A stretch of DNA of 48,490 nucleotides from Collinsella sp. 60_9. Lineage in GTDB: Bacteria; Actinomycetota; Coriobacteriia; Coriobacteriales; Coriobacteriaceae. The position numbers were made by a program, and so were the translations under genes. Below are positions 2,908 to 43,445 of the stretch, piece after piece. Numbering within the stretch: position 1 is the stretch's first letter; every line of letters begins with the position of its first letter. The DNA lies in the NCBI GenBank assembly GCA_001915225.1, contig MNQC01000103.1:2440-50929 (forward strand). Direction: 5' to 3'. The notes below the pieces were generated by a model. That model was not told the DNA's origin. It worked only from the letters and a program-made list of their open reading frames with translations, and did no database searches.

Positions 2908-3079
2908 GGAAAATTATAACCCAGAATAACGCAAAATAATGGGATGGGGTTTCCTCTAACCACATGTAAGGGAAATTCCATCCCGGTATTCGGCTAAAAA
3001 ATGGGACAAGCTTTCCCAACTGGCGCTCAAAAGGAAAATGCATCCCGGAATGAGAACGAATTCCGGGATGCATTTTCCG
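2908..3079. repeat. 172-bp three-hairpin element, copy 1
   Basis: Three 48-bp modules (GGAAA-N5-(T/A)CCC...GGG(A/T)-N5-TTTCC) starting at 2908, 2970, 3032; period 62. Confidence 0.8.
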
Positions 3080-3096
3080 CCATCTATCGCAGACGA

Positions 3097-6666: not shown

Positions 6667-7095
6667 TTAGGCGATGTGGAGTGGGTTGGCGGCGTCGACG
6701 GCATCGGGGGCGTCGGAGGGGTCATCGGGAACAGTGTCTGCCGGGTCCTCGTCGGGGGTCTCGATCTGTTTGATCATGACCTCTTGGCCCTGCAGCAAAT
6801 AGGTCTCGCCGCTACCGCAATGGGGACAGGTCTTGCCGTGCTCGACTGTCGAATAGTCGCGGCCGCACGCCTCGCAATGTGTCACGGCCTCAACGGGCTC
6901 CACGATAAGCTCTGCACCCTCGGTGATGGGCTTTTTATCTGCCGCCCAGCGCCAAGCGTCGAGTAGCAAGTCGGGAACGACGCCCGAGACCTCGCCCAGC
7001 AGCAGCGTGACGCTCGAAACGCGACGCACGCCATTGGCGCGCGCCACGTTCTCGACATCGCGAATGATGTGATAGACGATCCCCAGCTCGTGCAC
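6667..7095 (-). CDS. hypA: Hydrogenase maturation nickel metallochaperone HypA
   Basis: MHELGI N-terminus, GEVSGV, CEAC and CPHC zinc motifs; GTG start after GGAAGGA. Confidence 0.92.
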   Translation of the reverse strand: MHELGIVYHIIRDVENVARANGVRRVSSVTLLLGEVSGVVPDLLLDAWRWAADKKPITEGAELIVEPVEAVTHCEACGRDYSTVEHGKTCPHCGSGETYLLQGQEVMIKQIETPDEDPADTVPDDPSDAPDAVDAANPLHIA

Positions 7096-7107: not shown

Positions 7108-7270
7108 CCGCCGTTCTAACGAACGGCGGTCGGCTTGACGCTGCGCGAGTCCCAGACGGGCGATCTGCCTTTCAATCGTCGGGCATGGGCAAAAGCCCTA
7201 TGCCCTCCTCTTTCAAGGCACCTCGCCACGCCTGGGACCCGCTCGCTGTCCAACCGCCCTCTGCGCCGTT
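7108..7270 (-). repeat. Dispersed structured repeat, copy A
   Basis: Reverse complement contains GGACAGCGAGCG...GAGGTG-CCTT-GAAA...TTGA-AAGG-CAGATCG...GCAGCGTC plus a terminal hairpin, as in copies B-E. Confidence 0.8.
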
Positions 7271-7280
7271 CACTTACTTG

Positions 7281-10067
7281 TTAGGTCTCTTGCTTCTTCC
7301 CAAATTTGATCTTAATTGCACGCTTCAATGCGTACTTGCCCAGGCTTGGGAGCTTTTGCTCGTATTTGACCATCGTGGAGCACTCGGGGCGGTCGCGATC
7401 CAGATGGATGGCGTCAAACGCGCACTTGGTGGTGCACAGGCCGCAGCCGATGCACTTGTTGGGGTCGACGATCGAGGCGCCGCAGCCCAAGCAGCGGGCG
7501 GTCTCGGCGCGCACCTGCTCCTCGGTAAAGGTCTCAACATACTCGCTAAACGGCGCAGCCTTCTCGCGTTCGCGGTCCACGTGGGCAACCTCGCGGCTCG
7601 CGTTGTCGTAGCTTTCGATCACGACATCGTCGCGGTCGAGCGCGGTGTAGCGGCGCTGGTTGCGGCCGATGGTGAGCGTGGAGCCCGGCTGCACAAAGCG
7701 ATGGATGGACACCGCGGCCTCGTGACCGGCGGCGATAGCGTCGATGGCAAAGCTGGGACCAGTGTAGACGTCACCACCCACAAAGATGTCGGGTTCGGCG
7801 GTCTGGTAGGTCTGGGGATCGGCAAGGGCACCCTGACCGCGGCCAAGCTCCACCTGGGAACCAGCTAGCAGGTCGCCCCACACAATGGACTGGCCAATCG
7901 ACATGACGATACGGTCGGCATCGACACGGCGCAGATCGTTCTCGTCGTACTCGGGCGCAAACCGGCCCTCGTCGTCAAAGACACGCGTGCAGCGCTTGAA
8001 GGTGATACCGCACACGCGACCGACCTCGTCCAGGTGAACCTCCTTGGGGCCCCAGCCGCAGCTGATGTGAGCGCCGTCCTCAACGGCCTCGCGACGCTCC
8101 TCCTCGCTGGCGGGCATCTGGGCCTCGCCCTCCAGACAGAACATCTCAACATGCTCAGAGCCCAGACGGCAGGCGTTGCGGGCAACGTCGATGGCCACGT
8201 TGCCGCCGCCCACCACAATGGTGCGGCCGGACAGGGTATCGATCTTGCCGCTGTTAACCTCGCGAAGGAAGTCGACGGCCACGGTCACGTCCTCGGCATC
8301 CTCGCCCGGAATGCCGGCAAGGCGGCCGCCCTGGCAGCCAATGGCAACGTAGAAGGCCTTGAAGCCCTGCGCGCGCAGCTCGTCGAGCGTCACGTCGCGA
8401 CCGACCTCCACGCCATAGCGGAACTCGGCACCCATCAGGCGAATGATCTCGACCTCGGCCTCGATAACATCCTTCTGCAGCTTAAAGCTGGGAATGCCAT
8501 AGGTGAGCATGCCACCCGGGCGCTCGTTCTTCTCGAACACGACGGGCTTGTAGCCCTTCTCGGCCAGATAGAAGGCGCAGGACAGGCCGGCCGGACCGGC
8601 ACCGATGATGGCGATCTTCTGATCAAAGCCGCCAGCGCGCGTCGGCGTAACCACGGGCGGGACGTAGCGGGTCGCGGCATCCAGATCGCGCTGGGCGATG
8701 AACTTCTTGACCTCGTCGATAGCCACGGCGGCATCCACACGGCCGCGGGTGCAGGCATCCTCACAGCGGCGGTTGCACACACGGCCGCAGATAGCGGGCA
8801 GCGGGTTCTCGCGCTTAATGAGTGCTAGGGCCTCGTCATAGCGACCCTGAGCCGCGAGCTTCAAATAGCCCTGAACGGCAACGTGCGCGGGGCAGGCCGT
8901 CTTGCAGGGAGCGGTGCCGGACTCATGCGTCTCGATACGGTTGTCGTTGCGGTAGTTGGGCGACCACTTGGTGTGATCCCATTTGGTGGCGTCGGGCAGC
9001 TCCTGGCGCGGATACTCGGGCACCTGTCCGCCGGCCTTTTTGCTGCAGAGCTTCTGGCCGAGCTTGGCGGCGCCGGCCGGGCACACCTCAACGCAGCGAC
9101 CGCAGGCAACGCACTTGTCCTTCTCGACCTTGGCGACATAGGCCGAGCGCGACAGGTTGGGCGTGTTGAACAGCTGCGAGGTGCGCAGGGCGTAGCACAC
9201 GTTGACGTTGCAGTTGCAGATGGCGAAGATCTTGTTCTCGCCGTCGATATTGGTGATCTGGTGCACAAAGCCGTTGTCCTCGGCCTGGCGCAGGATGTCG
9301 TAAACCTCGTCGCGGGTCACGTAATGGCCACGATCGGTCTCAACCACGTAGTCGGCCATATCGCCCACGGCGATGCACCAATCGGCCGGGTCGTCGGCGC
9401 AGCCCTCACCCATCACGCGACGGCTCGCGCGGCAGCTGCAGGTGCTAGCGGCATATTTGCCATCGTATTTGTCGAGCCAATGCTCGATATGCTCAATCGG
9501 TACCGAGGTGCTCGCGGCGTCGATAGCCTTCTCGACCGGAATGACATGCATGCCGATACCGGCGCCTCCGGGCGGCACCATCGGCGTGGCCTTCGACAGC
9601 GGTCCCTTGGACGCCTGCTCAAAGAACTTGGCATAGACCGGATGCTCCTCGAGCTGGCTCGCGCGCATGTTGAGGAACTCGGCGGAACCCGGCACCAGCA
9701 TGGGCAGCACCCACTGCTTGGCGCGCTCGGGGTTTTCCCAGTTGTACTCGAGCAGACCCGTGTAGCTCATGTCGTCGAGCATCTTCTCGATATCGGCTTC
9801 GGGCATGCCGGTGAGCTTGACCATCTCGGGCAGCGTATAGGGACGGCGCATCTTCATCTTGCAGAGCACTTCGGCCTGCTCGTCGGTTGCGGCCTCGGCA
9901 AACGACCAGTACTCGTAGCCCAGCAGCTCATCGCGATGCAGCAGACGGTTGGTGCAGTGCTCGCACAGTTTGACGATGGCCTCGCGCGGATGCTCCGGTA
10001 TCGGCGGCACGAACTCCGCGCCGATATCGGGCTCGGTATAGCTAATCCCCGGTCCGTTGAGAATCAT
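7281..10067 (-). CDS. Large FAD/NAD(P)-dependent oxidoreductase with multiple 4Fe-4S domains (GltD/NfnB-like core)
   Basis: Start MILNGPG after AGAAGGGA; CVACGRCVEVCP and CIGCGLCTTKC ferredoxin motifs, APCKTACP/CGRVCNRRCE, GAGPAG, GGGNVAID, RCLGC; about 928 aa. Confidence 0.9.
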   Translation of the reverse strand: MILNGPGISYTEPDIGAEFVPPIPEHPREAIVKLCEHCTNRLLHRDELLGYEYWSFAEAATDEQAEVLCKMKMRRPYTLPEMVKLTGMPEADIEKMLDDMSYTGLLEYNWENPERAKQWVLPMLVPGSAEFLNMRASQLEEHPVYAKFFEQASKGPLSKATPMVPPGGAGIGMHVIPVEKAIDAASTSVPIEHIEHWLDKYDGKYAASTCSCRASRRVMGEGCADDPADWCIAVGDMADYVVETDRGHYVTRDEVYDILRQAEDNGFVHQITNIDGENKIFAICNCNVNVCYALRTSQLFNTPNLSRSAYVAKVEKDKCVACGRCVEVCPAGAAKLGQKLCSKKAGGQVPEYPRQELPDATKWDHTKWSPNYRNDNRIETHESGTAPCKTACPAHVAVQGYLKLAAQGRYDEALALIKRENPLPAICGRVCNRRCEDACTRGRVDAAVAIDEVKKFIAQRDLDAATRYVPPVVTPTRAGGFDQKIAIIGAGPAGLSCAFYLAEKGYKPVVFEKNERPGGMLTYGIPSFKLQKDVIEAEVEIIRLMGAEFRYGVEVGRDVTLDELRAQGFKAFYVAIGCQGGRLAGIPGEDAEDVTVAVDFLREVNSGKIDTLSGRTIVVGGGNVAIDVARNACRLGSEHVEMFCLEGEAQMPASEEERREAVEDGAHISCGWGPKEVHLDEVGRVCGITFKRCTRVFDDEGRFAPEYDENDLRRVDADRIVMSIGQSIVWGDLLAGSQVELGRGQGALADPQTYQTAEPDIFVGGDVYTGPSFAIDAIAAGHEAAVSIHRFVQPGSTLTIGRNQRRYTALDRDDVVIESYDNASREVAHVDREREKAAPFSEYVETFTEEQVRAETARCLGCGASIVDPNKCIGCGLCTTKCAFDAIHLDRDRPECSTMVKYEQKLPSLGKYALKRAIKIKFGKKQET

Positions 10068-15583: not shown

Positions 15584-18211
15584 CTACTCGGCGTCGGGGA
15601 CCTCGTAGGTGGCCGCCGGCGTGTTGTCGCACACGACGGTAAAGCCGCCGTCCTTGTCGGCATCGACCGTCACCTGATCGCCCTCGCGCACCGTGCCGTC
15701 GATGATAGCGGCGGCGATGGCATCCACGACCTCGCGCTGAACCAGACGCTTGAGCGGACGGGCGCCAAAGACCGGGTCCAGGCCGCCCACGGCGAGCATC
15801 TGCTTGGCCGCCGGGGTGATGGCAAGCGTCATGCGCTCCTTGGCCAGACGCGCGCGGACGTCGGCGAGCTGGATGTCGACGATCTTCTCGATCTGCGCCA
15901 TACCGAGCGGATGGAACACCACGATATCGTCGATACGGTTGAGGAACTCGGGGCGGAAGGTCTGAGCCATGGCAGCGTCGACCTGATGGCGCATCTCCTC
16001 CTCGTCCTTACCGGACTGATCGGCGATGGCCTTGGAGCCCACGTTGGACGTCATGATGATAATCGTGTTCTTGAAGGACACCTGGCGACCCTGGCCATCG
16101 GTCAGACGACCGTCATCAAGCACCTGCAACAGCACGTTAAAGACATCCGGATGAGCCTTCTCCATCTCGTCGAGCAAGATCACAGAGTACGGACGACGGC
16201 GCACGGCCTCGGTGAGCTGGCCGCCCTCGTCGTAGCCCACGTATCCCGGGGGCGCACCAATCAGACGCTGGACGCTGAACTTCTCCATATACTCGGACAT
16301 GTCGATACGCACGAGCGCGCGCTCGTCATCGAACAGGCACTCGGCCAGCGCCTTGGCGAGCTCGGTCTTGCCCACGCCGGTGGGGCCCAGGAAGAAGAAG
16401 CTGCCGATGGGCTTGTCCGGATCGGAGAGGCCCGCACGGCTGCGGCGCACGGCCGCGGCAACGGCGGAGACGGCCTCATCCTGACCGATGACGCGCTTAT
16501 GCAGCTCGCCCTCCAGGCCCTTGAGCTTGTCGAGCTCGCCCTGCATCATCTTGGACACGGGCACGCCGGTCCAGGCGCTCACGACCTCGGCGATCTCATC
16601 GGAGGTCACCTGCTCGTTGAGGCCCTCGCCGTCCTGCTGCTTTTGCGCCTCGAGCGCGGCCTCGGAATCCTGAATCTGCTGCTGCAGGCCCGGAATCACG
16701 GAGTAGCGCAGCTCGGACGCACGACCCAAATCGCCGTTGCGCGTCGCACGCTCCTCCTCGCTCTTGGCCTCGTCAAGCTGGCTCTTAAGCTCCTGCACGT
16801 GGTCGATGGCGTTCTTCTGGTTGAGCCAGCCGGCCTTTTGCACGTTGAGTTTTTCCTGGACCTCGGCAATCTCCTGGCGCAGGGCCTCCAGACGCTCCTT
16901 GGAGGCGTCATCGGTCTCTTTCATGAGCGCCTGTTCCTCGATCTGCAGCTGAGTGAGCTGACGCGTGGTGGCGTCGATCTCGACCGGCATGCTGTCGAGT
17001 TCCATGCGCAGGCGGCTTGCCGCCTCATCGACCAGATCGATGGCCTTGTCGGGCAGGAAGCGGTCGGCGATGTAGCGATCGGAGAGGTCGGCAGCTGCCA
17101 CGAGCGCGCTATCGGTGATATGCACACCGTGGAAGATCTCGTACTTCTCCTTCAGACCACGCAGGATCGAAATGGTGTCCTCGACGGTAGGCTCGCTCAC
17201 CATAACGGTCTGGAAACGACGGGCGAGCGCCGCGTCCTTCTCGATGTACTTGCGGTATTCGTCGAGCGTGGTCGCGCCGATCGCGTGCAGGTCGCCACGG
17301 GCGAGCGCCGGCTTGAGGATGTTGCCGGCGTCCATGGAGCCCTCGGTGGCACCCGCGCCCACGATGGTGTGGAGCTCATCGATGAACAGGATGACCTTGC
17401 CCTCGGACTTCTGGACTTCCTTGAGTACGGCCTTCAAGCGGTCCTCGAACTCGCCGCGGTACTTGGCGCCGGCGACCAGCGCGCTCATGTCGAGCTCGAT
17501 AAGGTCGCGGTCGCGCAGGGTGCTCGGCACGTCGCCGGCCACGATACGCTGGGCGATGCCCTCGACGATGGCCGTCTTGCCGACGCCCGGCTCACCGATG
17601 AGCACGGGGTTGTTCTTGGTGCGACGGGACAGGACCTGGATGGTGCGGCGAATCTCATCGGTACGGCCGATGACCGGGTCGAGCTTGCCGGCGCGGGCCA
17701 GATCGCAGATGTTGCGACCGTACTGCTCCAGTGCCTCAAACTGAGTCTTGTCCTCGGCAGACGTCACGCGGTCATCGCCACGCAGCTCCTCGTAGACTTG
17801 CTCGATGCGCTCCTTGGTGACGCCGGCGTCGCGCAGCACGCGGCCCGCCTCGCCCTTGTCCTCGGCAAGCGCCATCAGCAGATGCTCAGTCACCACAAAG
17901 CTGTCGCCCATCTTGGTGGCCTTCTTCTCGGCCTTTTCGATGACGCGGACGAGCTCGTTGGACAGGCCCATCTGCTGGCCCTCGCCCGAAACCTTGGGCG
18001 CGTGGTCGATGGCATCCTGTGTGGAGCGTGCGAGCTGAGCCGGGTCGGCACCGATGCGCTCGATGATCACGGAGATATTGCGCTCGCCGGCACCGAGCAG
18101 GGCAGACAGCAGATGAATCGGCTCCACCGCGCCGGCCTGCGCGTCAGCGGCCGTGCTCATGGCGGTCTGCAGCGCCTCGCGCGACGTCATTGCTAGCTTA
18201 TCGATTCTCAT
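15584..18211 (-). CDS. clpB: ATP-dependent chaperone ClpB
   Basis: 875 aa; [18 protein letters not shown], coiled-coil middle domain, [23 protein letters not shown]. Confidence 0.97.
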
Positions 18212-18327: not shown

Positions 18328-18388
18328 TCTGAGTGATTGATGGATAGGGTACTGAGACGTCGGTCCACTGTATCCCCGACGCCCGATT

Positions 18389-18606
18389 GTCTCAATCTGT
18401 AACATCTATTGACCGTTTCTGGCTCCAGATGTTACAGATCGAGACGAATTGTTCAGCGGCGCTCGTTTGTCTCAATCTGTAACATCTAATCGGCAAATAG
18501 GGCTCTATCTGTTACAAATCGAGACGAGCAGAAAACACCCAAATCGAAAATCTAAATCTGTAACACCAGGCCCACTTTTAGCGGCCAAGATGTTACAAGT
18601 CGAGAC
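18389..18606. repeat. Array of six alternating-orientation 19-bp repeats (three hairpin modules)
   Basis: GTCTCAATCTGTAACATCT-type units at 18389, 18469, 18550; AGATGTTACAGATCGAGAC-type units at 18427, 18507, 18588; loops 19 nt, linkers 23-24 nt. Confidence 0.88.
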
Positions 18607-18614
18607 AAACCGAG

Positions 18615-18735: not shown

Positions 18736-19101
18736 CAGCGATGGAATCGAGAACCGACAATAGCCCGTTCGCACAGATAGAGGCAGAGATTCAAGGTCAG
18801 AGTCCGGCTTAAACGGCTTAGCTATCGCACGTCACATTGTTCTCGTCGTCCCCCTATCATATTTATAGTGCTTATAGTGAAAATAGTGAGTTTAGTGAGA
18901 AGAGTATCGCTCAAAACTCGTGGACTCAATTATTGACCTCACGCCCAGAATGAGTGGGGCAAATATTTCCATTAGAGGTCAAATCGAAGCCCAATAGGGC
19001 CTTTTCACCCCGTCATTTCGATCGATCGCTTTCTTTTGAAGATTGTCGTAAGCTGGTATCACTTATCTTAATGAATGCATACTATTTGCGAGGTACCCGC
19101 C

Positions 19102-19749
19102 GTGAAACGCTCCACCTATATCGGCCTGCTCGTCTTAGCGTTTGCGATTACCGCAGTCGGCGTAGGAATTATCTATCTCGCATTTCTCCCCGCCTCTGCG
19201 ACGCAGGCGGCGGTTGAGACCGTAAGCTATCCCATCGAGGTCCTCACCGATATCGTCAAACCCGATTCGGTCACCGTCGATTTTGACGGTACGCCCGCAG
19301 CGCTTGGTGTCAGCAACTATCCCCGCATCGAACTTGGGGCCAGACGCTACACCAAAGATGAGCAGCTTATCGGCAAGGCAACCAGTTTACTCAAAGGCAA
19401 GACGTTTAAGCGGTGGTACGGCGCCGCAATATATCGAGCCAAGAATGGCCAAATGGTTGGCGGATATTATTCGACCCTTGAGCTCGATGCGGCAAACGGG
19501 AGCAAATTGTGCAACGTCTCATACGACCCCGGCTGCGTGGACAATGAAGGACCGGGGGTCTATATCTCGGATGGCGACGTAATCTACGTCATGGAGGGCG
19601 ACCAGACGGCAGTCGTCGATTTTATGGATCGGTGTACCGAGGATGCCTACGAACAAACCTGCGAGCCCGATCCGCAGACAGCGCGCAACAGTGGCTCGGC
19701 ACGCACTTGGCTATTTGACGATGAAATAACCTGGACCCCATCGAAATAA
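19102..19749 (+). CDS. Hypothetical protein with N-terminal membrane anchor/signal
   Basis: GTG start MKRSTYIGLLVLAFAITAVGVGIIYLAF after GAGG; no recognisable domain. Confidence 0.7.
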   Translation: MKRSTYIGLLVLAFAITAVGVGIIYLAFLPASATQAAVETVSYPIEVLTDIVKPDSVTVDFDGTPAALGVSNYPRIELGARRYTKDEQLIGKATSLLKGKTFKRWYGAAIYRAKNGQMVGGYYSTLELDAANGSKLCNVSYDPGCVDNEGPGVYISDGDVIYVMEGDQTAVVDFMDRCTEDAYEQTCEPDPQTARNSGSARTWLFDDEITWTPSK

Positions 19750-19789
19750 GGACCCGCCGGGCAGGCAACTTTGTGATGGTCCCGGTCAA

Positions 19790-19821
19790 TTATTAGCGCC
19801 CCTCAAGACCCAACGAGAACG
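19790..19821 (+). repeat. 32-bp direct repeat, right copy
   Basis: TTATTAGCGCCCCTCAAGACCCAACGAGAACG. Confidence 0.85.
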
Positions 19822-19829
19822 TCGCGGTA

Positions 19830-19901
19830 GCCCCGGCCACACCTTTCCCTCGGGCGACCCTCGCGAAGCGCGTGAGCACGAGGGAAAGGTGTGGCCGGGG
19901 C
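19830..19901. repeat. 23-bp perfect inverted repeat between convergent genes
   Basis: GCCCCGGCCACACCTTTCCCTCG (19830-19852) and CGAGGGAAAGGTGTGGCCGGGGC (19879-19901); no U-tract. Confidence 0.8.
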
Positions 19902-19912
19902 GTACAGCAGAG

Positions 19913-22213
19913 TTACTCGGCAGCGGCCTTGAACTTGTTGTAGTTGATCAGGCAGCCAGCCTTGACGATGGCACGCTCCTCTGCCGTCATATCGGCAATG
20001 TAGAGCTCAATCTGCTCGACCGCACCATCGGCGCGCACCACGTAGGCGGCGATGCCCTTCAGGTCGCCATCGAGCGCGGCGCGGATACCCGGCACAAAGA
20101 CGTAGTCGCCCACCTCAAAGCTGGGCTCGGCCTCCATCTGGAAGGGCACCATGCCCCAGTTCATCACGTTGGAGCGATAGCGCTTGGTGGCGTACTCGTG
20201 GACGATGTTGGCCAGGCCGCCAATTACGCGCTGGCAGCTCGCGGCCTGCTCGCGGGCAGAACCGTCACCGGGCTTCTTGGCATAGAGCATGGAGCCGTAC
20301 TCAGTCGCCTTGGCATCGGCCGCGACACCCGCGCCGGTCAGCGCCTCAAACACGCTGGCAAGCTCGGCATCGAGTGCCGCCAGGTCGCCCGCTGCCTCGC
20401 CGGCAACGCGGCGCTTTTCCACCGCGTCGACCTCCTTGGAGCGGCCCACGTAGGCAGGGTCGCGACGGCTGAGCGTAAACTCGGCCAGACCCAGCGGGTT
20501 GGAGCGGAAGGAGCTCGTCTCGCCCGAGGGAATGAGCTCGTCGGTCGTAGTGACCGGGTCCATGATCTTGGAGCACACCTTGAGCAGGATGTCGTCGCCG
20601 AGAGGCTCCATCGCGGGCCACGGCTTGATGTTGGGGCCCTCGACCAGCTCGTCGGCCGGCTCAGCCTTGCCAAAGCCCCAGTACACGCGCTTCTTGTACG
20701 GCGCGTCGTCAAAGGTGTACTCGCAGGCCTCGTCCCAAGTCTCCTCGGGCAGGTCGGTCGCCGGCGTCAGGACGCCGCCGTTGGCAGCCGTCGCCGCAAT
20801 GGAGCGGGCGTCCATCAGGGCCACGGCGCTCAGCTGACCGTTGCCCGGCTTGGAACCCTCGCGATTGGGGAAGTTGCGCGTGGTGTGGCGGATCGAAAGG
20901 CCGTTGTTGGCAGGCGTGTCGCCGGCGCCGAAGCACGGGCCGCAGAATGCCGTGCGCACAATCGCGCCGGCCTCCATAAGGTCGTAGATGTAGCCGCGGC
21001 GTGTAAGCTCGAGTGCCACGGGCTGGCTCGTGGGATAGACCGACAGCGAGAACTCGCCGCAGCCGGTGTTAGCGCCCTTGAGCACGCGAGCAGCCTGGAC
21101 CACGGAGTCGTAGTTGCCGCCCGAGCAGCCGGCGATAACGCCCTGCTGCACGTGCAGCTTGCCGTCGACGATCTTGTCGAGCAGGCTAAAGTGCGTCTTG
21201 CCCTCGCCGATCTTGGCGGCCTCGAGCTCCACCTCATGCAGGATGTCCTCGAGGTTCTCGTTGAGCTCGTCGATCTCAAAGCCGTTAGAAGGATGGAACG
21301 GCAACGCGATCATGGGCTTGATACTCGACAGATCGACTTCGACGCAGGCGTCGTAGTAGGCAACATCGGCGGGCTTGAGCTCGCGGTAGTCCTCGCCGCG
21401 ACCGTGCATGGTCAAAAACGCGTGCGTGTCCTCGTCGGTGGCCCAGATGCTCGACAGGCAGGTGGTCTCGGTGGTCATGACGTCGACGCCGTTGCGGTAG
21501 TCGGTCGTCATGCTCGCGATACCGGGGCCCACGAACTCCATAACCTTGTTCTTAACGTAACCCTTGGCAAAGACGGCGCGGATGATGGCGAGCGCCACAT
21601 CGTGCGGGCCGACGCCGGGGCGCGGGGCGCCCGTGAGGTAGATGGCGACGACGCCGGGATAGGCAACGTCGTAGGTGTCGCGCAACAGCTGCTTGGCCAG
21701 CTCGCCGCCGCCCTCGCCCACGGCCATGGTACCCAGGGCGCCGTAGCGGGTGTGCGAGTCGGAGCCCAGAATCATCTTGCCGCAACCGGCAAAGTTCTCA
21801 CGCATAAAGGAATGGATGACAGCGATATGCGGCGGGACGAAGATGCCGCCGTACTTCTTGGCCGCGGAAAGGCCAAAGACGTGGTCATCCTCGTTGATGG
21901 TGCCGCCCACGGCGCACAGCGAGTTATGGCAGTTGGTAAGCACGTAGGGCAGTGGGAACTGCTCCATGCCCGAGGCGCGCGCCGTCTGGATGATGCCAAC
22001 GAAGGTGATGTCGTGGCTCGCCATGGCGTCGAAGCGAATCTTGAGCGCCTCGGGATTGCCGGACGTATTGTGTGCCTGGAGGATCGAATACGCGATGGTG
22101 CCGCGCTTAGCATCCTCGGGCGTCTGCGTAATACCGCGCTCGGCAGCCTCGGCCACAGGCACAACCTCGCTGCCGTTACGCAGGTAGATGCCGTCCTCGT
22201 ACAGCTTGACCAT
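19913..22213 (-). CDS. Aconitase-family hydratase (YbhJ-like)
   Basis: MVKLYEDG start; [72 protein letters not shown]. Confidence 0.9.
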
Positions 22214-22384
22214 ACTGTCTCCCACTCTGCCCGAAAGGCTCGGGCGCATAGCATACATTCGTTCAATATCGTGCCATAGAACGGTTGCAAGTGGGTTACG
22301 AATCTGCACGTTCACTTTATTTCGGTAAAGTAAGGGACGACCCCGGTGCAGGACCGGCAGATTTGGTGCAAGAGTGTCCCTTCC

Positions 22385-22453
22385 GACTAGTCATTTAAGA
22401 ACGTCCCCAATGACTACCAGACTAGTCATTTAAGAACGTCCCCAATGACTACC
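22385..22453. repeat. Tandem duplication of a 35-bp REP-like unit
   Basis: GACTAGTCATTTAAGAACGTCCCCAATGACTACC twice (22385, 22420); internal IR TAGTCATT/AATGACTA; near-identical copy at 45860-45888. Confidence 0.88.
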
Positions 22454-22464
22454 CTACCGTATCC

Positions 22465-22643
22465 GGAGCAAGGCAACGCCGCAGGTAGAGGACGGACAGC
22501 GAGCGACGTCCAGGGCGAACAAGTTGGCATGAAAAAGGCGAGGCATTGACCTTCTGGTCATGCCTCGCCTTTTGAATGACAAATTGTCGCCCTGGGCGGC
22601 GCGCAGCGTCGGCCGGTTACGGCGTTTGGTAAAACGCCGTAAC
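22465..22643 (+). repeat. Dispersed structured repeat, copy B
   Basis: GCAGGTAGAGGACGGACAGCGAGCG...CAAGTTG-GCAT-GAAA...TGACCTTCTGGTC...TTGA-ATGA-CAAATTG...GCAGCGTC...GTTACGGCGTTTGGTAAAACGCCGTAAC. Confidence 0.88.
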
Positions 22644-23060
22644 CTAGAGATCCCCGCCTGCGCCCAAAAGTTTGCGCATGACCTGTTCGGGGTTGACTGA
22701 GCCGTCGCGCGGGGCCAGGGCGGTAATCTTCTTCTGCATCTTGTACTCGTGCAGTTCGTCCTCGAGCTGGCGCACGCGGGCACGGAGTTTTTCGTTCTCG
22801 CGCTCGCGCTCCTCGGCACGCTCCTTCATATCGAGGATGCGCACCACGCCGGCAAGGTTGATGCCTTCGTCGGTCAGCTGGTTGATGAGCTCCAGACGCT
22901 CGATATCGGCACGCGAATACAAACGCGTGTTGCCGCCCGAGCGCTGGGGGTTCACCAGGCCCTTGGACTCGTAGACGCGCAGAGTCTGCGGGTGCATGCC
23001 GGTCAACTCGGCCGCCACGCTGATCATGTACAGCGGTTTGTTCCTATTGTCCTCGGCCAT
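22644..23060 (-). CDS. hspR: Heat-shock repressor HspR (MerR family)
   Basis: PLYMISVAAELTGMHPQTLRVYE...RSGGNTRLYS...EGINLAGV; last gene of the dnaK operon. Confidence 0.93.
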   Translation of the reverse strand: MAEDNRNKPLYMISVAAELTGMHPQTLRVYESKGLVNPQRSGGNTRLYSRADIERLELINQLTDEGINLAGVVRILDMKERAEERERENEKLRARVRQLEDELHEYKMQKKITALAPRDGSVNPEQVMRKLLGAGGDL

Positions 23061-23132
23061 GCTACCTGACCCCTTTCCGTCTCGTTATCGTCCATCATAA
23101 GCCCGCAGACGCGGGCGTGCGCCACGACCGCC

Positions 23133-24080
23133 CTAGTACGTCGCCTTGTAACGGTTGACCTTCTCGCGATAGTCGCGCGTGTCGGTCTCGCGCAGCTTGG
23201 TCATGGCATCGCGCTCGTCATCAGACAGGTTCGTGGGAACCTGCACCTTGATCTCGACAAGCAGTGCACCGGTGCGCCCGCGATGCTTAACGTCGGGCGC
23301 ACCCATCTCCTTAAAGCGGAACTTCTTGCCCGTCTGGGTGCCAGCGGGCACCTTCAGACGAACCGTCGCGCCGCCGGGCGTCGGCACGTCCACCGTGCAG
23401 CCGAGCGCCGCCTCATAGACCGAGACCGGTACCTCCATGGTCACGTCGGCACCTTTACGCTTAAACAGCGGATGCTCCTCCACGTGCGTGGTCACGACCA
23501 GGTCGCCGCGCTCGCCGCCGGCAACGCCATACTCGCCGCGACGTTTGTAGCGCAGCTTGCCGCCGTCGACCGCGCCCGCGGGGACCGAGACCGTAATGGT
23601 CTGCTGCTCGCCTGTCGAGGGAATGCGATAGGTGACCTTGTGCGTCACGCCGCGGAACGCGTCCTCAGCCGTCACATCGACGGTCAGCGACAGGTCGCCG
23701 CCCTTGCGAGCGCGGCTGCGACCCGCGCCGGCACCGGCAAAGCCCGAGCCCCAATCGCTGCCCCAGGCGCCGTTGCCGCTAAAGATGCTGTCGAAGATGT
23801 CGCCCCAGCCGCTGGCACCCGCGCCGGCACCGTAGCCGCCGCCATACGCGCCGCCCGCGCCCGGCATGCCGCCAAACATGAGCATCTGGTCGTACTCTTT
23901 GCGCTTCTTCTCGTCCGAAAGCGTCTCGTAGGCCTCGCTGATCTCCTTGAACTTGGCCTCGTCACCGCCGGCATCGGGGTGATATTTTTGCGCGAGCTTG
24001 CGAAACGCGCTCTTGATCTCTTTGTCGGAGGCGCTCTTGGATACGCCCAGGATGTCATAGAAGGTTTTGCCTGCAGCCAT
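23133..24080 (-). CDS. dnaJ: DnaJ/CbpA-type co-chaperone (no zinc finger)
   Basis: J domain with KYHPD, G/F-rich linker, DnaJ C-terminal domain; no CXXCXGXG repeats. Confidence 0.9.
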
Positions 24081-24152
24081 CGTAGCTCCTCTCCTGTTTC
24101 ATCCGTCGCCCAGCGGGCGGCGGTTCATGCTTTCATATGGCACTAGGCCAGA

Positions 24153-24182
24153 AAGGGCCCCGGGTGTTGCCCCGGGGCCCTT
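24153..24182 (-). terminator. Hairpin between grpE and dnaJ
   Basis: GGGCCCCGGG-TGTTG-CCCGGGGCCC stem with a short T-run on the minus strand. Confidence 0.6.
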
Positions 24183-24187
24183 CTCAA

Positions 24188-25030
24188 TTACTCCTCGGTG
24201 CTCTCGGCCGTATCGGCCGCAGCATCCTCGGGCGCCGCTTCGGGCTCCGGTGCGGGGCGCTTCTCGCCACCGTAGGTCACCGTCACCATCGCGGAACGCA
24301 GGATGCGGTCCGCCATGCGGTAGCCCTTCTGGTACACGTCGTTGACGGTCTCGTCGTACTGCGATGCGTCCTCGACGCGACCCACAGCCTGATGCTCGAG
24401 CGGATCAAACGCTTCGCCCTTGGGGTCGATGGGCTCAACGCCCTCATGCGCAAACACGTCGAGCAGCTTGGCATGCACCGCGTCGACGCCGTCGACGAAC
24501 TGCTTAAAGTCGTCGGCAAGCTCCTGACTGCGGGCGTGGTCGATCGCACGCTCGATATCGTCGACCACCGGCAGCAGCGCAGTGACGAGCTTCTCGGTCG
24601 CGCGCTCGCGCTCGGCGATACGCTCGTTGGCGGTGCGGCGACGGAAGTTCTCCCAGTCGGCCTGCAGACGGGCGGTGCGCTCGGTGGCGTCCTTTGCCTT
24701 GTCCTCGGCGGCCTTCTGAGCCTCTGCCGCAGCATCGAGCTCGTTGCGCACGTCGGCAAGCTCTTTCTGAGCCTGCTCGAACTTGAGCTTAAAGTCGTTG
24801 TCGGCGGCTTCCTCACCGGCGCGGATAGCGGCTTCCACCATCTCGTCCTCGGTCATCGTCGCCTCCTTGTTGGAATCCTCTACTTGGTTCTCGGCAGCCT
24901 CGGCGGCCGGGGCCTCGTTGGCCTCGGTAACGTCTGCGGCCTCTACGGGAATCTTCACGTCCTTCTCCTCAGAGTCAACGGGGGCGGCACCAACGGCGGC
25001 CGCCTCCGTGCGAGCTTTACGAGCGGACAT
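24188..25030 (-). CDS. grpE: Nucleotide exchange factor GrpE
   Basis: RLQADWENFRRR, LLPVVDDIERA, FDPLEHQAV, QKGYRMADRILRSAMVTV. Confidence 0.95.
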   Translation of the reverse strand: MSARKARTEAAAVGAAPVDSEEKDVKIPVEAADVTEANEAPAAEAAENQVEDSNKEATMTEDEMVEAAIRAGEEAADNDFKLKFEQAQKELADVRNELDAAAEAQKAAEDKAKDATERTARLQADWENFRRRTANERIAERERATEKLVTALLPVVDDIERAIDHARSQELADDFKQFVDGVDAVHAKLLDVFAHEGVEPIDPKGEAFDPLEHQAVGRVEDASQYDETVNDVYQKGYRMADRILRSAMVTVTYGGEKRPAPEPEAAPEDAAADTAESTEE

Positions 25031-25032
25031 GA

Positions 25033-26880
<1,848 letters not shown>

Positions 26881-26989
26881 TAGAAATTCCCTCTCTCTTG
26901 TGCGTTTGCACCGACTCGGCGGTCTGCCAAGCGGTGTTTCGGCTTGTCTTTCAGGATGTAGTGTATCCCCTTATGGGCCGGAATATACA

Positions 26990-27016
26990 AAATCTAAGTC
27001 AATTCATATAAGATTT
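26990..27016. promoter_or_regulatory. Putative HspR operator upstream of dnaK
   Basis: AAATCTAAGTC-AATTC-ATATAAGATTT; same arms as upstream of clpB. Confidence 0.7.
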
Positions 27017-27143
27017 CTTATTGCCAAGAGTTTAGGTTCGCAAATATGCAGGTAGACGCGCTGTTTGAGTTCTGGGCAGATCTATCGAGATCTATGTAGA
27101 GATGGCTGAGGTTTGCGTCCGGGGGTGCCTGGGGGCCGTCTTG

Positions 27144-27315
27144 CGGAAAGCTCATCCCGGTTTGATCGTGGATTCCGGGTCGCAGTTTCCGTCTGAAGGC
27201 TCAACCGGAAACCGTATCCCGTTTTGAGAGCTGATACCGGCTCGCATTTTCCGCTAGCGGGCCTAACCGGAAACTGCAACCCGTTTTTCGACAAAATAAT
27301 GGGATGCGGTTTCCG
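27144..27315. repeat. 172-bp three-hairpin element, copy 2
   Basis: 48-bp modules CGGAAA...TTTCCG starting at 27144, 27206, 27268. Confidence 0.85.
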
Positions 27316-27538
27316 CATGCGCGCTCAATAGCTCAATATTTCAAGTCACCTTTAGCTAACATTTGCGCAGCTCAACGGCCCCACCTGCGCGTTTTTTAGT
27401 AAACCTTGGCATACTCGGCGAACGGTATGAAGATGCCGGCCAGAGGGTATTGCAAACGGTCGCTCCCGTGGTATGTTTTTGCCCGAATCAAACCGGCGCG
27501 CATCGTCTGTAGCGTCGGTCAACAGAGAGGAAACTACC

Positions 27539-27724
27539 ATGGCTCATCCCGTAATTGATGCCGACGAGTGCATCGCTTGTGGCGTTTGCGTCGACTCCTG
27601 CCCCGCTGGCGTTCTGGAGCTCCAGGACGTCGCTACCGTCGCTGACGAGGACTCCTGCGTCGCCTGTGGCGCTTGCCAGGACGCTTGCCCCGCTGGCGCG
27701 ATCACCGAGATCGTCGAGGAGTAA
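27539..27724 (+). CDS. 2x[4Fe-4S] ferredoxin
   Basis: CIACGVCVDSCP and CVACGACQDACP; RBS GAGAGG. Confidence 0.95.
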   Translation: MAHPVIDADECIACGVCVDSCPAGVLELQDVATVADEDSCVACGACQDACPAGAITEIVEE

Positions 27725-27759
27725 CAACTCCCCCACTTGCACACTCAAAAGTACACCGT

Positions 27760-27809
27760 GCACAAAAAAGGAGGCCTCCGCATCGCCGCGGAGGCCTCCT
27801 TTTTTGTGC
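27760..27809. terminator. Bidirectional intrinsic terminator
   Basis: GCACAAAAAAGGAGGCCTCCGC and GCGGAGGCCTCCTTTTTTGTGC form a perfect stem. Confidence 0.9.
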
Positions 27810-27848
27810 GGATAACTAATTTGGCACCGCCGTTGGTTGAACTCGCGC

Positions 27849-27962
27849 CAGCGAAAACGCCCCATTTGAGGCAAGGTGGCCTGAAAGAGGAGGGAAGCGT
27901 ACTCTGGTACGCGACCGACGATTGAAGGCCAGATTGTCCAAATGGGGCGTTTGCAGCGTCGG
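27849..27962 (+). repeat. Dispersed structured repeat, copy C (core only)
   Basis: AAACGCCCCATTTG..GCAAGGTG-GCCT-GAAA...TTGA-AGGC-CAGATTGT.CAAATGGGGCGTTT-GCAGCGTC. Confidence 0.8.
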
Positions 27963-28508
27963 CTAAGAGAGATCGTCTTCGTAGGGCATCAGGTCTGCTA
28001 GGTAGCCTTTCTCCTTGAGCATGGCCTCGATCTCGTCGAGGGTCTGCTCGTCTTCCGCCGCGATGCGATGGAAGTGGTAGCCGCTCGTCACCGTTAGTAG
28101 TGGAAAGCTCTTGCCGCTCTCGATATCGCGCAGATAGCGCTCAACATCGCGACGATTGCGGATGTCCAGGTCGGCCGTGATCTTGCCGTACACACGATGG
28201 TTGACGATCACGTTGAGCACGGCGCCGCCCGCGTCGACGATACTCGTAAGCTCGTCGCCCGCCTGCTCCACGCTGTGGCGCACCTTAACAAGACGCGTGG
28301 GCACAGCGGGGCTGCTGGGGGCCTCCTGCAGCACGTAGCCGCGATTGGTCGCCACGATATCGTGCCCATCGGCGCGCAGCAGGGCGATGTCTTGCACGAC
28401 AATCTGGCGGCTCACACCCACCTCACGAGCAAGTGCGCTGCCGGAGACGGGGCCCTTGGCTCCCTCGAGCACGCCCATGATGGCACGGCGACGCTCGCGG
28501 GCGTCCAT
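27963..28508 (-). CDS. niaR: Niacin-responsive repressor NiaR (HTH_11 + 3H domain)
   Basis: PVSGSALAREVGVSRQIVVQDIALLRA, ATNRGY, HRVYG, GYHFH; in the nad operon. Confidence 0.9.
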   Translation of the reverse strand: MDARERRRAIMGVLEGAKGPVSGSALAREVGVSRQIVVQDIALLRADGHDIVATNRGYVLQEAPSSPAVPTRLVKVRHSVEQAGDELTSIVDAGGAVLNVIVNHRVYGKITADLDIRNRRDVERYLRDIESGKSFPLLTVTSGYHFHRIAAEDEQTLDEIEAMLKEKGYLADLMPYEDDLS

Positions 28509-39221: not shown

Positions 39222-40333
39222 TGGCGCCCGAGCAGCCGGCTCGCTCCGGTATCGACTTCTCGGCATTCCGCGATCCCAAGCTGGCTCGCGAGCTCATCGA
39301 GCGTATTCATGAGCTTGCCGGCGACCGCGCCATCAACCTTATGGAAGTCTGCGGCACGCATACCGTGAGTATCGGGCGCTATGGCTTTCGCTCCATTATG
39401 CCTGCCGGGCTCAAACTGCTAAGCGGTCCGGGTTGCCCCGTCTGCGTTACCGCCAACCGCGACATCGACCACGCAATCGCGCTCGCCAACATAGACGGCG
39501 CCATCATCACCACCTTTGGCGACATGATGCGCGTGCCCGGGTCATCCACCTCGCTCGCTGCGCAAAAGGCGGCAGGGCGTGACATTCGCATCGTCTACTC
39601 CCCGCTCGACGCGCTCGACATTGCCGAGCAAAACCCCGATCGCCCGGTCATTTTTATGGGCGTGGGCTTTGAGACCACAACGCCCACCATCGCCGCCGCC
39701 ATTTTGGAGGCCGATGCACGCGGACTCCAGAACTTCTCGGTCTACTGCGCCCACAAGACCACGCCGCCGGCGCTGCGCGCCATCGCCAACGATCCCGAGA
39801 CCACTATCGACGGCTTTATCCTGCCGGGCCACGTCGCCACCATCACGGGCTTAGCCCCCTTTGGCTTTTTGGTCGACGAGTTTAAGACTCCAGGCGTGGT
39901 AACGGGATTTGAGCCGGTCGACATCTTGCAGGGTATCTGCATGCTGGTCCAGATGGTTGTCGAGGACAGGCCGGCGATTGACAACGCCTACCGCCGTGGC
40001 GTCAACGCAGACGGCAACCCCGTGGCGCGCCAGCTGGTCGAGCAGGTGTTTGAGCCATGCGACACCACGTGGCGCGGGCTGGGGCCGATTGCCAACTCGG
40101 GCCTTTCCATCCGCCCCGAGTTCTCGCGCTTTGATGCCCGCGTTCGCTTTGACGTGCCCGTTGAGCCGACGGTTGAGCCGCGCGGATGCCGCTGCGGCGA
40201 CGTGCTGCGCGGAGCCATTACGCCGAGCAGCTGCCCGCTCTTTGGCCGCACCTGCACGCCCGAGCACCCCGTCGGCCCGTGCATGGTGAGTTCCGAAGGC
40301 AGCTGCGCGGCATATTTCCGCTACCGAGGCTAA
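39221..40333 (+). CDS. hypD: Hydrogenase maturation protein HypD
   Basis: MEVCGTHT, GPGCPVC, GFETT, PGHV, CMVSSEGSC. Confidence 0.96.
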   Translation: MAPEQPARSGIDFSAFRDPKLARELIERIHELAGDRAINLMEVCGTHTVSIGRYGFRSIMPAGLKLLSGPGCPVCVTANRDIDHAIALANIDGAIITTFGDMMRVPGSSTSLAAQKAAGRDIRIVYSPLDALDIAEQNPDRPVIFMGVGFETTTPTIAAAILEADARGLQNFSVYCAHKTTPPALRAIANDPETTIDGFILPGHVATITGLAPFGFLVDEFKTPGVVTGFEPVDILQGICMLVQMVVEDRPAIDNAYRRGVNADGNPVARQLVEQVFEPCDTTWRGLGPIANSGLSIRPEFSRFDARVRFDVPVEPTVEPRGCRCGDVLRGAITPSSCPLFGRTCTPEHPVGPCMVSSEGSCAAYFRYRG

Positions 40334-40339
40334 TAGGTT

Positions 40340-40378
40340 CCGCCGTTCTAACGAACGGCGGACCAGTCGACGCTGCGC
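40340..40378 (-). repeat. Fragment of the dispersed structured repeat (terminal hairpin plus GCAGCGTC)
   Basis: CCGCCGTTCTAACGAACGGCGG identical to 7108-7129, followed by GACGCTGCGC. Confidence 0.75.
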
Positions 40379-41536: not shown

Positions 41537-42173
41537 CCTGGACGGCACCATCCTCAACACGCTCGAGGACCTGGCGGCCGCCGGCAACCATACCTGCGAG
41601 ACGCACGGCTGGCCCACGTTTGCCGTCGACGAGTACCGCTACAAGGTGGGAAACGGCATGCTCAAGCTGGTTGAGCGTTTTATGCCTGCCGAGTATGCGG
41701 GCGACGGCCGTATGTTTGAGCAGACGCTTGCCGAGTTTAGGGCTTACTACGGCGAGCACAAGGAGGACCACACCGCCCCCTATGCCGGCACAATCGAGAT
41801 GCTCGACCGCCTGCGCGCCGCGGGTGTGCAGCTAGCCGTGCTCACTAACAAGGACCACGTCTCGGCGGCTCCGCTTATCGAAAAATACTTTGGTTCCGAG
41901 CGCTTTGCGCTGGTACAGGGCCGTGTTGATGCGTTTCCGCCCAAGCCCGAAGCACCCGTCACGCTGCATGTGATGGAGGAGCTGGGCGCCAATCCGGCAA
42001 CCACGCTCTATGTGGGCGATTCCAATGTCGATATCCTGACCGGTCACAACGCCGGCCTTAAGAGCGCGGGCGTCAGCTGGGGCTTCCGCGGCCGCGCAGA
42101 GCTGGAAGCCGCCGGCGCCGACTACGTGGTGGACACCCAGGACGAGCTCGCAGCGCTGATCCTGGGCGAGTAA
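41505..42173 (+). CDS. HAD-superfamily phosphatase (phosphoglycolate phosphatase-like)
   Basis: FDLDGT, LTNK, KP, YVGDSNVD, GVSWGFR. Confidence 0.92.
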   Translation: MAAAFSHVIFDLDGTILNTLEDLAAAGNHTCETHGWPTFAVDEYRYKVGNGMLKLVERFMPAEYAGDGRMFEQTLAEFRAYYGEHKEDHTAPYAGTIEMLDRLRAAGVQLAVLTNKDHVSAAPLIEKYFGSERFALVQGRVDAFPPKPEAPVTLHVMEELGANPATTLYVGDSNVDILTGHNAGLKSAGVSWGFRGRAELEAAGADYVVDTQDELAALILGE

Positions 42174-42214
42174 CGAGCGACACTGCTTAACGCAGCTGCG
42201 ACAATTCTTCCGCG

Positions 42215-42386
42215 CAGAAAGCGCATCCCGTTTTGGAGCTCCGGAATGGGATATGCTTTCCGTTTGAGGCACATCAGGGAAACCGCATCCCGTTTCAGAA
42301 CAATATTCCGGGTCGCACTTTCCGCAACCCACCCCATCCGGAAAATGCGACCCACTATTCGGCCAAAAACCGGGTCGCGGTTTCCC
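42215..42386. repeat. 172-bp three-hairpin element, copy 3
   Basis: 48-bp modules starting at 42215, 42277, 42339. Confidence 0.85.
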
Positions 42387-42403
42387 AAGCACTCGGTGCA
42401 ACG

Positions 42404-42457
42404 CTGGCACAAGGAGTGTCCCCAACTGCCGGCAGAAAAGGAACGTCCCCAGCTGCC
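42404..42457. repeat. Two tandem REP-like GTCCCC-loop hairpins
   Basis: GGCA-CAAGGAGTGTCCCCAAC-TGCC and GGCAG-AAAAGGAACGTCCCCAG-CTGCC. Confidence 0.65.
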
Positions 42458-42483
42458 GCCTTCCCAATGACTACTTCAGCGAT

Positions 42484-42671
42484 GGCAACGTCGCAGGTAA
42501 AAGTGCCACTTTAAGCCAACCAAGGGAACGAAAGCCCGCCAGAGCGAGCAAGGTGCCTTGAAACAAGGCGGCATTGACCTTTTGGTCATGCCGCCGAAGT
42601 TGAAAGGCAGATTGCCGCTCTGGCGGGCTTGCAGCGTCGAGCAGTTGCGGCGTTTGGTAAAACGCCGCAAC
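42484..42671 (+). repeat. Dispersed structured repeat, copy D
   Basis: AAGCCCGCCAGAGCG.GCAAGGTG-CCTT-GAAA...TGACCTTTTGGTC...TTGA-AAGG-CAGATTGC-CGCTCTGGCGGGCTT-GCAGCGTC...GTTGCGGCGTTTGGTAAAACGCCGCAAC. Confidence 0.88.
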
Positions 42672-42674
42672 GAA

Positions 42675-43232: not shown

Positions 43233-43413
43233 GTTGTTCCTCCCAATGAGCGGCACCGCGCTTCCCGGACGCGGCACACGTTGTAATAAGTAAGCCCATA
43301 CTATCCACTTATGAACACCCTCGGCAACGCGAAGGCGCGGTCGGTTCGTTTTAGCGTCCGAACGGTTTGCAAGCCCGCCCAACGTGCAATAAAACGCTTC
43401 CCCGCGATGCAAT

Positions 43414-43445
43414 AAAAAAGGTGGCCGGAAAACCCGACCACCCTT
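43414..43445 (-). terminator. Terminator after the PTS EIIA gene
   Basis: Minus strand GGTGGTCGG-GTTTT-CCGGCCACC followed by TTTTTT. Confidence 0.75.

Follow-up and report, generated by a model that had tools for sequence, protein, structure and literature searches.

A modular hairpin repeat beside stop codons in Collinsella and its likeness to REP/BIME mosaic elements

The stretch of DNA analysed here (the window, 48.5 kb, from Collinsella sp. 60_9) carries five full copies and one partial copy, labelled A to F, of a dispersed, structured repeat that lies against the ends of genes. The neighbouring proteins were matched above curated family cutoffs to HspR, DnaJ, NadC, HypC, HypD, HypE, PyrE and ClpB; HypA (E 1.3e-18, below the curated cutoff) and a NiaR-like regulator were weaker matches. 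These scans covered 18 window proteins and eight proteins from loci in other genomes. The repeat is composed of modules, for which the labels S, P, H, tag and T were coined in this analysis, and its forward strand is defined as the strand that reads CAAGGTG...CAGATTG. On that strand the order of the modules is fixed as S-P-H-tag-T, in the window copies and in the loci alike.

S consists of zero to two small hairpins, with a kept loop that contains GAACGTCCCC. P is a weakly conserved leader of about 30 nt with CAGCG at its end, and H is an imperfect hairpin of about 105 nt, bordered on both sides by the same pentamer. The tag, GCAGCGTC, is found in copies A, B, C, D and F and is nearly invariant (the G, C and G positions are kept in 127 of 128 aligned copies). 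A linker of 4-6 nt separates it from T, a perfect hairpin of 22-30 nt overall with a stem of 10-12 bp that begins GTTAC or GTCC and a loop of 3-4 nt (GGTA, GTTA or GTA). Tandem pairs of tag-T units were present in some copies from other genomes. An earlier note on this DNA had described a unit of 110-190 nt; the repeat is real, and its unit was too narrowly drawn, since the S-P-H-tag-T mosaic starts up to about 80 nt further upstream in copies B and E.

A covariance model (R1) was built on 128 distinct copies and then run over both strands of the window. Exactly five full copies were found (99-127 bits), all on the strands that the earlier note had assigned to them; the reverse strands of these copies scored 18.5-30.7 bits and everything else 17 bits or less. 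The sixth place, copy F, is partial and holds the 3' module alone (tag and T). The core pattern AGGTGNNNTGAAAN{20,50}TTGAANNNCAGAT matched copies A, C, D and E (four matches in the window) and had no match in any of 100 shuffles.

Copy A lies on the minus strand. Its H, with the end of the leader (CAGCG) and the tag (7137-7144), occupies 7132-7253 (R1 122.4 bits), and its T (7108-7129, 9-bp stem, loop GTTA) is followed by AAGGAATTAAAA and the GTG start of hypA at 7095 (open reading frame, ORF, 6667-7095). The leader (7254-7280, 5' boundary approximate) stands directly after the TAA (7281-7283) of the gene for a 1052-aa Fe-S/NAD(P) oxidoreductase. Copy B, on the plus strand, begins with two tandem S hairpins (22385-22453; stem TAGTCATT/AATGACTA, loop with GAACGTCCCC at 22399 and 22434; repeat family D15), followed by a leader that ends in GACAGCGAGCG (22457-22505; repeat family D9), an H of the CAAGTTG...CAAATTG variant (22492-22615, R1 111.2 bits) with the tag at 22603-22610, and T (22615-22644). 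The final base of T is the first base of the hspR stop (22644-22646, minus strand; HspR match E 4.3e-35, above cutoff). The 4-bp stem of this copy, GCAT/ATGA, contains one G.A; the other stem variants quoted in the earlier note were present as written. Copy C (27844-27965, plus strand, R1 114.1 bits) comprises the end of P, H and the tag (27953-27960) without T, and the niaR-like gene has its stop codon at 27963-27965.

Copies D and E are also on the plus strand. In copy D an S-type hairpin region (loop GAACGTCCCC at 42441-42450) and a leader take up 42410-42520, with approximate boundaries; H follows at 42521-42643 (R1 126.6 bits), with the tag at 42631-42638, and T at 42644-42671, ending 3 nt short of the stop codon (42675-42677) in a 258-aa ORF. 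Copy E has one S (45857-45890) and a duplicated leader made of P, the left-arm stub of an older H and a second P (45857-45977 in all; families D9 and D15). Its H (45964-46068, with the R1 match running to 46084; 99.0 bits) has a shortened outer 3' arm and has lost the tag by deletion, as seen by alignment with the tag-bearing loci L027 and L106; its T (46069-46096, inverted repeat I25) overlaps the pyrE stop (46096-46098) by one base, and the pyrE match was above cutoff. Copy F (40339-40378, minus strand) is a solo tag-T, with GCAGCGTC at 40369-40376 and the hairpin at 40339-40362, 5 nt from the hypD stop (40331-40333); it was absent from the same site in four of five other species.

The wider sample came from a genome scan with a sequence pattern, which gave at least 123 loci (L001-L123); all counts on loci below are drawn from these and the window. 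The loci were chosen for the presence of H, and the taxonomic range is that of the at least 123 matches listed, which by title comprise 119 from Collinsella or Coriobacteriaceae, three from 'uncultured bacterium' and one from a bin labelled Bulleidia. The last of these (L082, CAVEET010000094.1) is a 3.8-kb contig with the same site and variant as Collinsella loci L045 and L075, and is probably a binning error and not a second genus. Many copies in the loci lie at contig ends, and contigs often break in or beside the repeat. One public contig of a metagenome-assembled genome (L007, 10074-10112) ends right after a cut-off H copy in the stretch CTGTCTCTTATACACATCTCCGAGCCCACGAGAC, which we take to be a Nextera-type sequencing adapter; this end is probably an assembly artefact. 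A profile search with nhmmer over the listed loci and the window (1.278 Mb) returned 158 matches, 146 of them near full length and 21 outside the scan pattern; these include roughly 30 copies beyond those that define the loci. Among plasmid records, one from C. aerofaciens matched, at nine places, and there was no match to the repeat among phage records.

In Rfam 15, at the gathering threshold, the whole window gave a single match, to a tRNA (2732-2804), and none on the repeats. When cmscan was run at E <=10 on copies B and D and at E <=0.1 on the window, only sub-threshold matches to generic long hairpins were obtained, the best being mir-789 (29 bits against a gathering score of 100). Collinsella-1 (RF01700), likewise a candidate structured non-coding element from the same genus and habitat (Weinberg et al. 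2010, PMC2864571), which the earlier note had proposed to include in such a scan, was not matched at these same settings; the repeat is a different element. Literature searches on repeats of Collinsella and Coriobacteriia found no description of it, and PMC6006769 mentions neither Actinobacteria nor Collinsella.

The position of the repeat against stop codons was assessed on 88 non-redundant copies, with opposite-strand ORFs of at least 80 codons. A convergent stop on the opposite strand was found from -4 to +6 nt of the 3' end of the element in 64 of the 88, and the abutting ORFs had a median length of 309 codons and a mean G+C content at third codon positions (GC3) of 0.79. The commonest placement was an overlap of one base, common to the stop codon and T. 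In a further 13 of the 88 copies the stop was 9-54 nt off, behind a second, tandem T unit or a remnant, and in 11 there was none. Independently of our ORF calling, the tyrS stop annotated by NCBI in locus L124 overlaps T by 1 nt. The window copies follow the same pattern: the hspR stop overlaps the last base of T, the niaR-like stop is 2 nt past GCAGCGTC, the stop of the 258-aa ORF is 3 nt past T, that of pyrE overlaps T by 1 nt and that of hypD is 5 nt from the hairpin of copy F. The earlier note had placed five of the six copies at the stops of genes pointing toward them, and this part was borne out and extended; its label of lipoprotein for the 258-aa ORF beside copy D was not, as the protein family scans gave no match for that ORF. 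Copy A was correctly placed at the start region of hypA, with its 3' end 12 nt before the GTG at 7095.

Of the 61 stops of abutting genes, 42 were TAG and 19 were TAA; TGA did not occur among them. The background, taken from ORFs of at least 200 codons and GC3 >0.72 in the loci, was TAG 350, TAA 285 and TGA 35 (n = 670). TGA is thus a rare stop in these genomes, yet prfB (release factor 2) is annotated at 7771-8919 of L124. Left neighbours were considered for 78 copies: 43 were convergent with the abutting gene, 15 were co-directional with it, and 20 could not be resolved. At about six sites P came directly after the stop of the left gene, and the element spanned the whole gap from stop to stop. 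The reverse strand must be transcribed as the 3' untranslated region (UTR) of the abutting gene, because the stop and T stand too close together for a terminator to fit between them.

The secondary structure was derived with RNAalifold from the 128 distinct copies, and pairs were counted against shuffled alignments and slid partners. The consensus has 33 pairs, of which 23 show double-sided changes. Of the stem cells, 97.8% were paired, compared with 76.1% after shuffling and 23-43% with slid partners, and the covariation score was 0.541, compared with 0.155 for shuffles (none of 500 reached 0.541) and 0.03-0.12 for slid partners. The covariation anticipated in the earlier note was therefore recovered in the larger alignment. 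Its proposal that structure is under selection holds as far as these figures go; the variation, however, is for the most part that among a small number of discrete master variants, which recombine module by module, and there is no continuum of independent substitutions. The near-constant motifs, which had been described as unpaired, turned out to be mostly helical: TGAA pairs with TGAA and forms a tandem G.A, and CAAGGTG pairs with CAGATTG with G.A and G.G mismatches, which in the copy B type are reduced to a single G.A or A.G.

The strand that carries CAAGGTG...CAGATTG is the strand whose folding is preserved. With one event counted per sequence cluster, pair and type, G.U was recorded in 68 events and A.C in 18 (binomial p 5e-8), a preference for this strand stronger than the one the earlier note had read from three copies. 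As the majority state of clusters of at least three sequences, G.U occurred in 14 cluster-by-pair cases and A.C in none, and single-copy variants of the T stem showed the same G.U trend. The purine-purine mismatches are conserved on the forward strand and would read as pyrimidine-pyrimidine on the opposite one. When folded as DNA, the forward strand was more stable than the reverse in all five window copies; H of copy B gave -49.1 kcal/mol forward and -41.6 reverse, and H of copy D had a z-score of -10.1.

Variants at one site change far faster than the flanking genes. A total of 135 copies were assigned to 44 orthologous sites, and among same-site pairs with flanks at least 95% identical, the identity of H was below 85% in 68 of 137. 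For 49 of 117 copies the nearest relative of H was at another site. At site D, the flanks of the window and L066 are about 98% identical and the outer stems, 4-bp stems and inner hairpins differ; at site C in L037 an unrelated hairpin precedes the same GCAGCGTC tag. Stubs of older copies were found on the 5' side in L015, L084, L065, L067, L122 and copy E of the window, which fits new material always arriving beside the stop codon. In addition, three divergent hairpins contain the core of H only (L013 7321-7376, L079 1965-2023, L124 32202-32272); each keeps the 4-bp stem, GAAA, the inner hairpin and TTGA, but its outer arms are different ones, and P, tag and T are all missing. In two cases a stop codon (in L124 that of map) is again only a few nt away. 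Their form suggests older or sister lineages of H.

The earlier note had advised a comparison of empty with filled sites across strains; across the genomes of the loci, presence and absence were both seen at some sites. In the one clean pair, L077 is filled and L074 and L044 are empty, the two convergent genes there sharing CTAG. The empty site reads ...GTC CTAG CAC... and the filled site ...GTC ATAG [~195 nt] CTAG CAC..., with both stops kept; the insert comprises P, H, tag and T, with (C)TAG on both sides. At L036 (against L012/L018), at L070 (against L051) and at site F a target-site duplication was looked for, but these cases look like replacements, with changed stop codons and no clean junction. 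In comparisons with both flanks, H was absent in 8 of 244, from four sites, a count biased by the choice of the loci for having H. Regions that were not behind the retrieval of a locus were filled in 20 of 26 cases and empty in six.

A partner enzyme was sought among the 1019 ORFs of the loci, which fall into 473 groups, ten of them without conserved neighbours. Eight of these ten were scanned with Pfam and comprised a ParA-like ATPase, a UvrA-like ABC protein, AAA/DUF4143, RpoA, RelB, DAHP synthase, an MFS protein and an apiosidase; the other two were one large paralogous group and one group of short ORFs that overlap the repeats. No gene for a REP-associated tyrosine transposase (RAYT) flanked by repeats was found in the eight groups scanned, and there was no integrase among the 18 window and eight locus proteins. 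A small ORF within the repeat was rejected: one type of inner hairpin has a Shine-Dalgarno-like GAGGAGG, yet no start codon is at a usable distance. Promoter and terminator consensus scans were run over 42100-46200 and 22200-28100 of the window. No sigma-70-like promoter site was found in or before the window copies, and no terminator site at T or full H (totals of 4 and 6 against 5.1 and 5.9 expected). On the reverse strand, T-runs are confined to some variants (TTTTT after the inner hairpin of copy B, TTTT after the AAA-type outer stems) and are missing from GAGCGGG-type variants; on the forward strand there is no T-run after H or T.

A REP/BIME-like family (repetitive extragenic palindromes and bacterial interspersed mosaic elements), that is, a non-autonomous and non-coding mosaic element family of Collinsella, is the reading we prefer, with an even chance of being right. 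REP/BIME elements are described in PMC3733652, PMC2817692 and PMC3337134 as mosaics of abundant extragenic palindromes with other motifs that mostly follow coding regions and lie between genes in a convergent or co-directional arrangement; their composition varies at one locus, they are targets of the IS110 family, and they are thought to be read as folded single strands. The Collinsella repeat resembles them in each of these respects, and its mosaic character is seen in the fixed S-P-H-tag-T order, in the 158 matches in 1.278 Mb and in the reassortment of the modules. The differences are also clear. REPs are small palindromes, 20-40 bp in length, that carry an unpaired GTAG at one of their ends (PMC3733652), whereas the present repeat has no invariant GTAG, a T of 22-30 nt and an H of about 105 nt with conserved internal mismatches. 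Moreover, its order and orientation are fixed to one abutting stop, its host is an actinobacterial genus, and the ORF groups scanned held no RAYT gene.

For such a family, an enzyme of the HUH/RAYT type, suggested in the earlier note, is a reasonable idea. The element would enter at the TA or TAG of stop codons, which would be the main tolerated sites of this kind because the genome has 60% G+C and about 95% of its stops are TAG or TAA. An enzyme acting in trans may read the folded forward strand, most likely as single-stranded DNA (ssDNA), and resident copies may be overwritten module by module, either through gene conversion or because the element inserts again at the same position, with older copies shifted to the 5' side and decaying there. 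As a side effect, two strong hairpins would be placed directly behind the stop of each abutting gene, where they could stabilise or terminate the mRNA or insulate convergent genes. Strand-specific folding and the CAGCG direct repeats around H are compatible with IS200/IS605-like processing. Elements of that type transpose as single strands and have subterminal hairpins and, on one flank, a fixed short target.

Several results weigh against a REP/BIME-like mobile family. The covariation falls among few master variants, and hence independent compensatory events are fewer than the cell counts imply. The ends of the L077 insert are unrelated (5' GACCCCTCGC..., 3' ...CCGCGTAAC), so that there are no terminal inverted repeats, and the 5' boundary of the composite is approximate only. 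Clean empty and filled sites were obtained in one of four cases, the other three looking like replacements. Pfam disclosed no transposase, recombinase or HUH gene in eight of the ten non-syntenic ORF groups. The forward strand has a weak tendency to be the C-rich strand (24 of 35 site representatives, p ~0.04, with representatives that are non-independent through shared loci and confounded by gene orientation), and the lagging-strand-template model known from IS200/IS605 biology would not predict a C-rich forward strand. Lastly, a high share of sites is occupied across species (20 of 26), and any one variant hardly differs between species or between sites; both facts are equally well explained by selection for a host function.

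Such a function is the core of an alternative that we consider possible, at well below even chance: a host-selected, cis-acting 3'-UTR element, in which T and H terminate transcription, block 3' exonucleases, insulate, or modulate translation termination, and whose family would have arisen through the copying of a useful cassette to the ends of many genes. The high occupancy and the near identity of variants fit it, as do the obligatory transcription of the reverse strand, the convergent genes around 43 of the 58 copies whose left neighbour could be resolved and the reverse-strand TTTTT and TTTT of copy B and of the AAA-type outer stems. Di Nocera et al. (PMC3733652) likewise place most REPs downstream of coding regions and consider that they may have a role as RNA elements. 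What counts against this alternative is that the asymmetry between G.U and A.C (68 against 18, and 14 against 0) and the purine-purine mismatches favour the strand opposite to the transcribed one, which was also the more stable in five of five copies; that terminators at T or H did not exceed chance, the GAGCGGG type lacking a T-run altogether; and that frequent swapping of variants at the same site is not needed for a function of this kind. As a further alternative, which we regard as improbable, the preserved forward strand could be expressed from many copies as a small RNA, trans-acting or antisense, in which H forms the structured body. It would account for the strand whose folding is kept, and the tandem G.A and other purine-purine mismatches resemble, by inferred likeness, protein-binding motifs of RNA. 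There is, however, no sigma-70-like promoter in or before the window copies and no forward T-run after H or T; a canonical terminator of the left gene precedes several copies (e.g., 27749-27818 before copy C); and in 15 of the 58 cases that were resolved the left neighbour is encoded on the opposite strand, which leaves no supply by read-through. Together with the lack of an Rfam match, and with the disfavoured strand being the one that must be transcribed, this speaks against the multi-copy non-coding RNA that the earlier note had entertained.

Among explanations by mobility, a stop-homing single-strand element of an undescribed kind, in which a CGTC-type REP (tag-T) carries a nested H, is a tentative one that we consider rather unlikely. 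The tag-T would enter at TA or TAG and regenerate the stop, and a structure-reading enzyme, of the HUH type or other, would cut the forward strand at both CAGCG pentamers around H; solo tag-T units such as copy F would then be accounted for, and so would the bias to the forward strand and the exchange of H variants, like cassettes, at fixed gene ends throughout the genus. CGTC-tagged REPs, as PMC3733652 describes them, have stems of 8-9 bp that start with A/T pairs, loops of 4-5 nt, a CCA tail and head-to-head dimers; no dedicated transposase is known for them either, and the paper lists five phyla, Actinobacteria not among them. Tag-T resembles them in that an unpaired and conserved ...CGTC motif stands 5' of a small, perfect hairpin whose loop has 4 nt, but its CGTC is 4-6 nt from the stem, its stems are 10-12 bp and start with GTTAC or GTCC, and it has neither the CCA tail nor head-to-head dimers. 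A link to the IS110 family (DEDD, bridge-RNA-guided), with the elements as preferred targets or passengers of its recombinase, appears unlikely. It is prompted by an annotated IS110-family gene in the S loop directly upstream of P-H-T at the tyrS end in L124, and IS110 members have been reported inserted in REPs (PMC12288879); nevertheless, a single case was seen, the insertion sequence (IS) has broken up S, no likeness to H, P or T is seen at either of its ends, and S as a target leaves the spread of P-H-T unexplained. Very improbable are attC-like sites, recombined as folded single strands by a tyrosine recombinase. The repeat does share with attC the keeping of structure while sequence varies, one active folded strand and a position right after the stop of an ORF, but its neighbours are core genes in conserved synteny (hspR-dnaJ, nadC/niaR-like, hypCDE, pyrE, tyrS) and not cassettes, there is no cassette array, and no integrase was among the 18 window and eight locus proteins.

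Bacterial MITEs (transposable elements of the miniature inverted-repeat type) such as Correia, ERIC/IRU, RUP and BOX offer a further comparison. They are likewise 100-250 nt long with long hairpin potential, and BOX also has a modular build; their insertion at TA-containing targets with a short duplication may have a counterpart in the (C)TAG on both sides of the one clean insert, and their effects on neighbouring transcripts in those proposed for T and H. The Collinsella repeat differs from them as a composite without terminal inverted repeats for which no parent IS was found; its termini vary and its internal motifs are constant, the reverse of a MITE bound by a transposase.

Collinsella is a common and extremely species-rich genus of the human gut, and a repeat that fills many of its gene ends will affect assembly, binning, strain typing and the annotation of 3' UTRs. 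The combination of stop contact, constraint on one strand and fast turnover of variants is unusual. It could lead to a new enzyme able to read single strands in folded form or, alternatively, show a selfish hairpin in the course of becoming a standard gene-end module, a question left by the REP field. The covariance model and the module grammar ease a census.

Other features were noted in the loci and the window. In L124 (NZ_OY725717.1, 18596-19925) the IS110-family transposase coding sequence (18789-19901) lies inside an S loop, between ...AAGAACGTCC and ACCCAACGACTACC, just upstream of the P-H-T copy at the tyrS stop; the S loop thus appears to serve as a specific target of IS110, a role that REPs have in other bacteria. 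The window also has another hairpin repeat family, unrelated to the first and about 62 nt long, in several copies and both orientations (3032-3093, 27144-27267, 42197-42385). Its form is CGGAAA..CGCATCCCG...CGGGAT..GCG..TTTCCG, and only some of the species have it at site D. Three palindromic units in tandem, each about 80 nt long and with the core TGTCTCAATCTGTAACATCT...AGATGTTACAGATCGAGAC, stand upstream of clpB (15584-18211, minus strand) at 18377-18608; they are possibly a repeated operator or another repeat family. Behind the gene for a Fic-domain protein there is a hairpin with 30-bp arms (GAGCGTGGATAATCTCCCAC..., 45787-45850), which other species have kept as well. An insert of about 800 bp separates this hairpin from the repeat in L016, L032 and L066, with a partial copy of the hairpin's flank on its far side; the insert looks, from its sequence, as if it holds a small helix-turn-helix regulator gene on the opposite strand. 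The terminator that precedes copy C (27749-27818) is a canonical bidirectional one with an A-tract and a T-tract, between the ferredoxin gene and the repeat, and a perfect 26-bp inverted repeat (19830-19901) adjoins the stop of a hydratase gene (19913-22315, minus strand).

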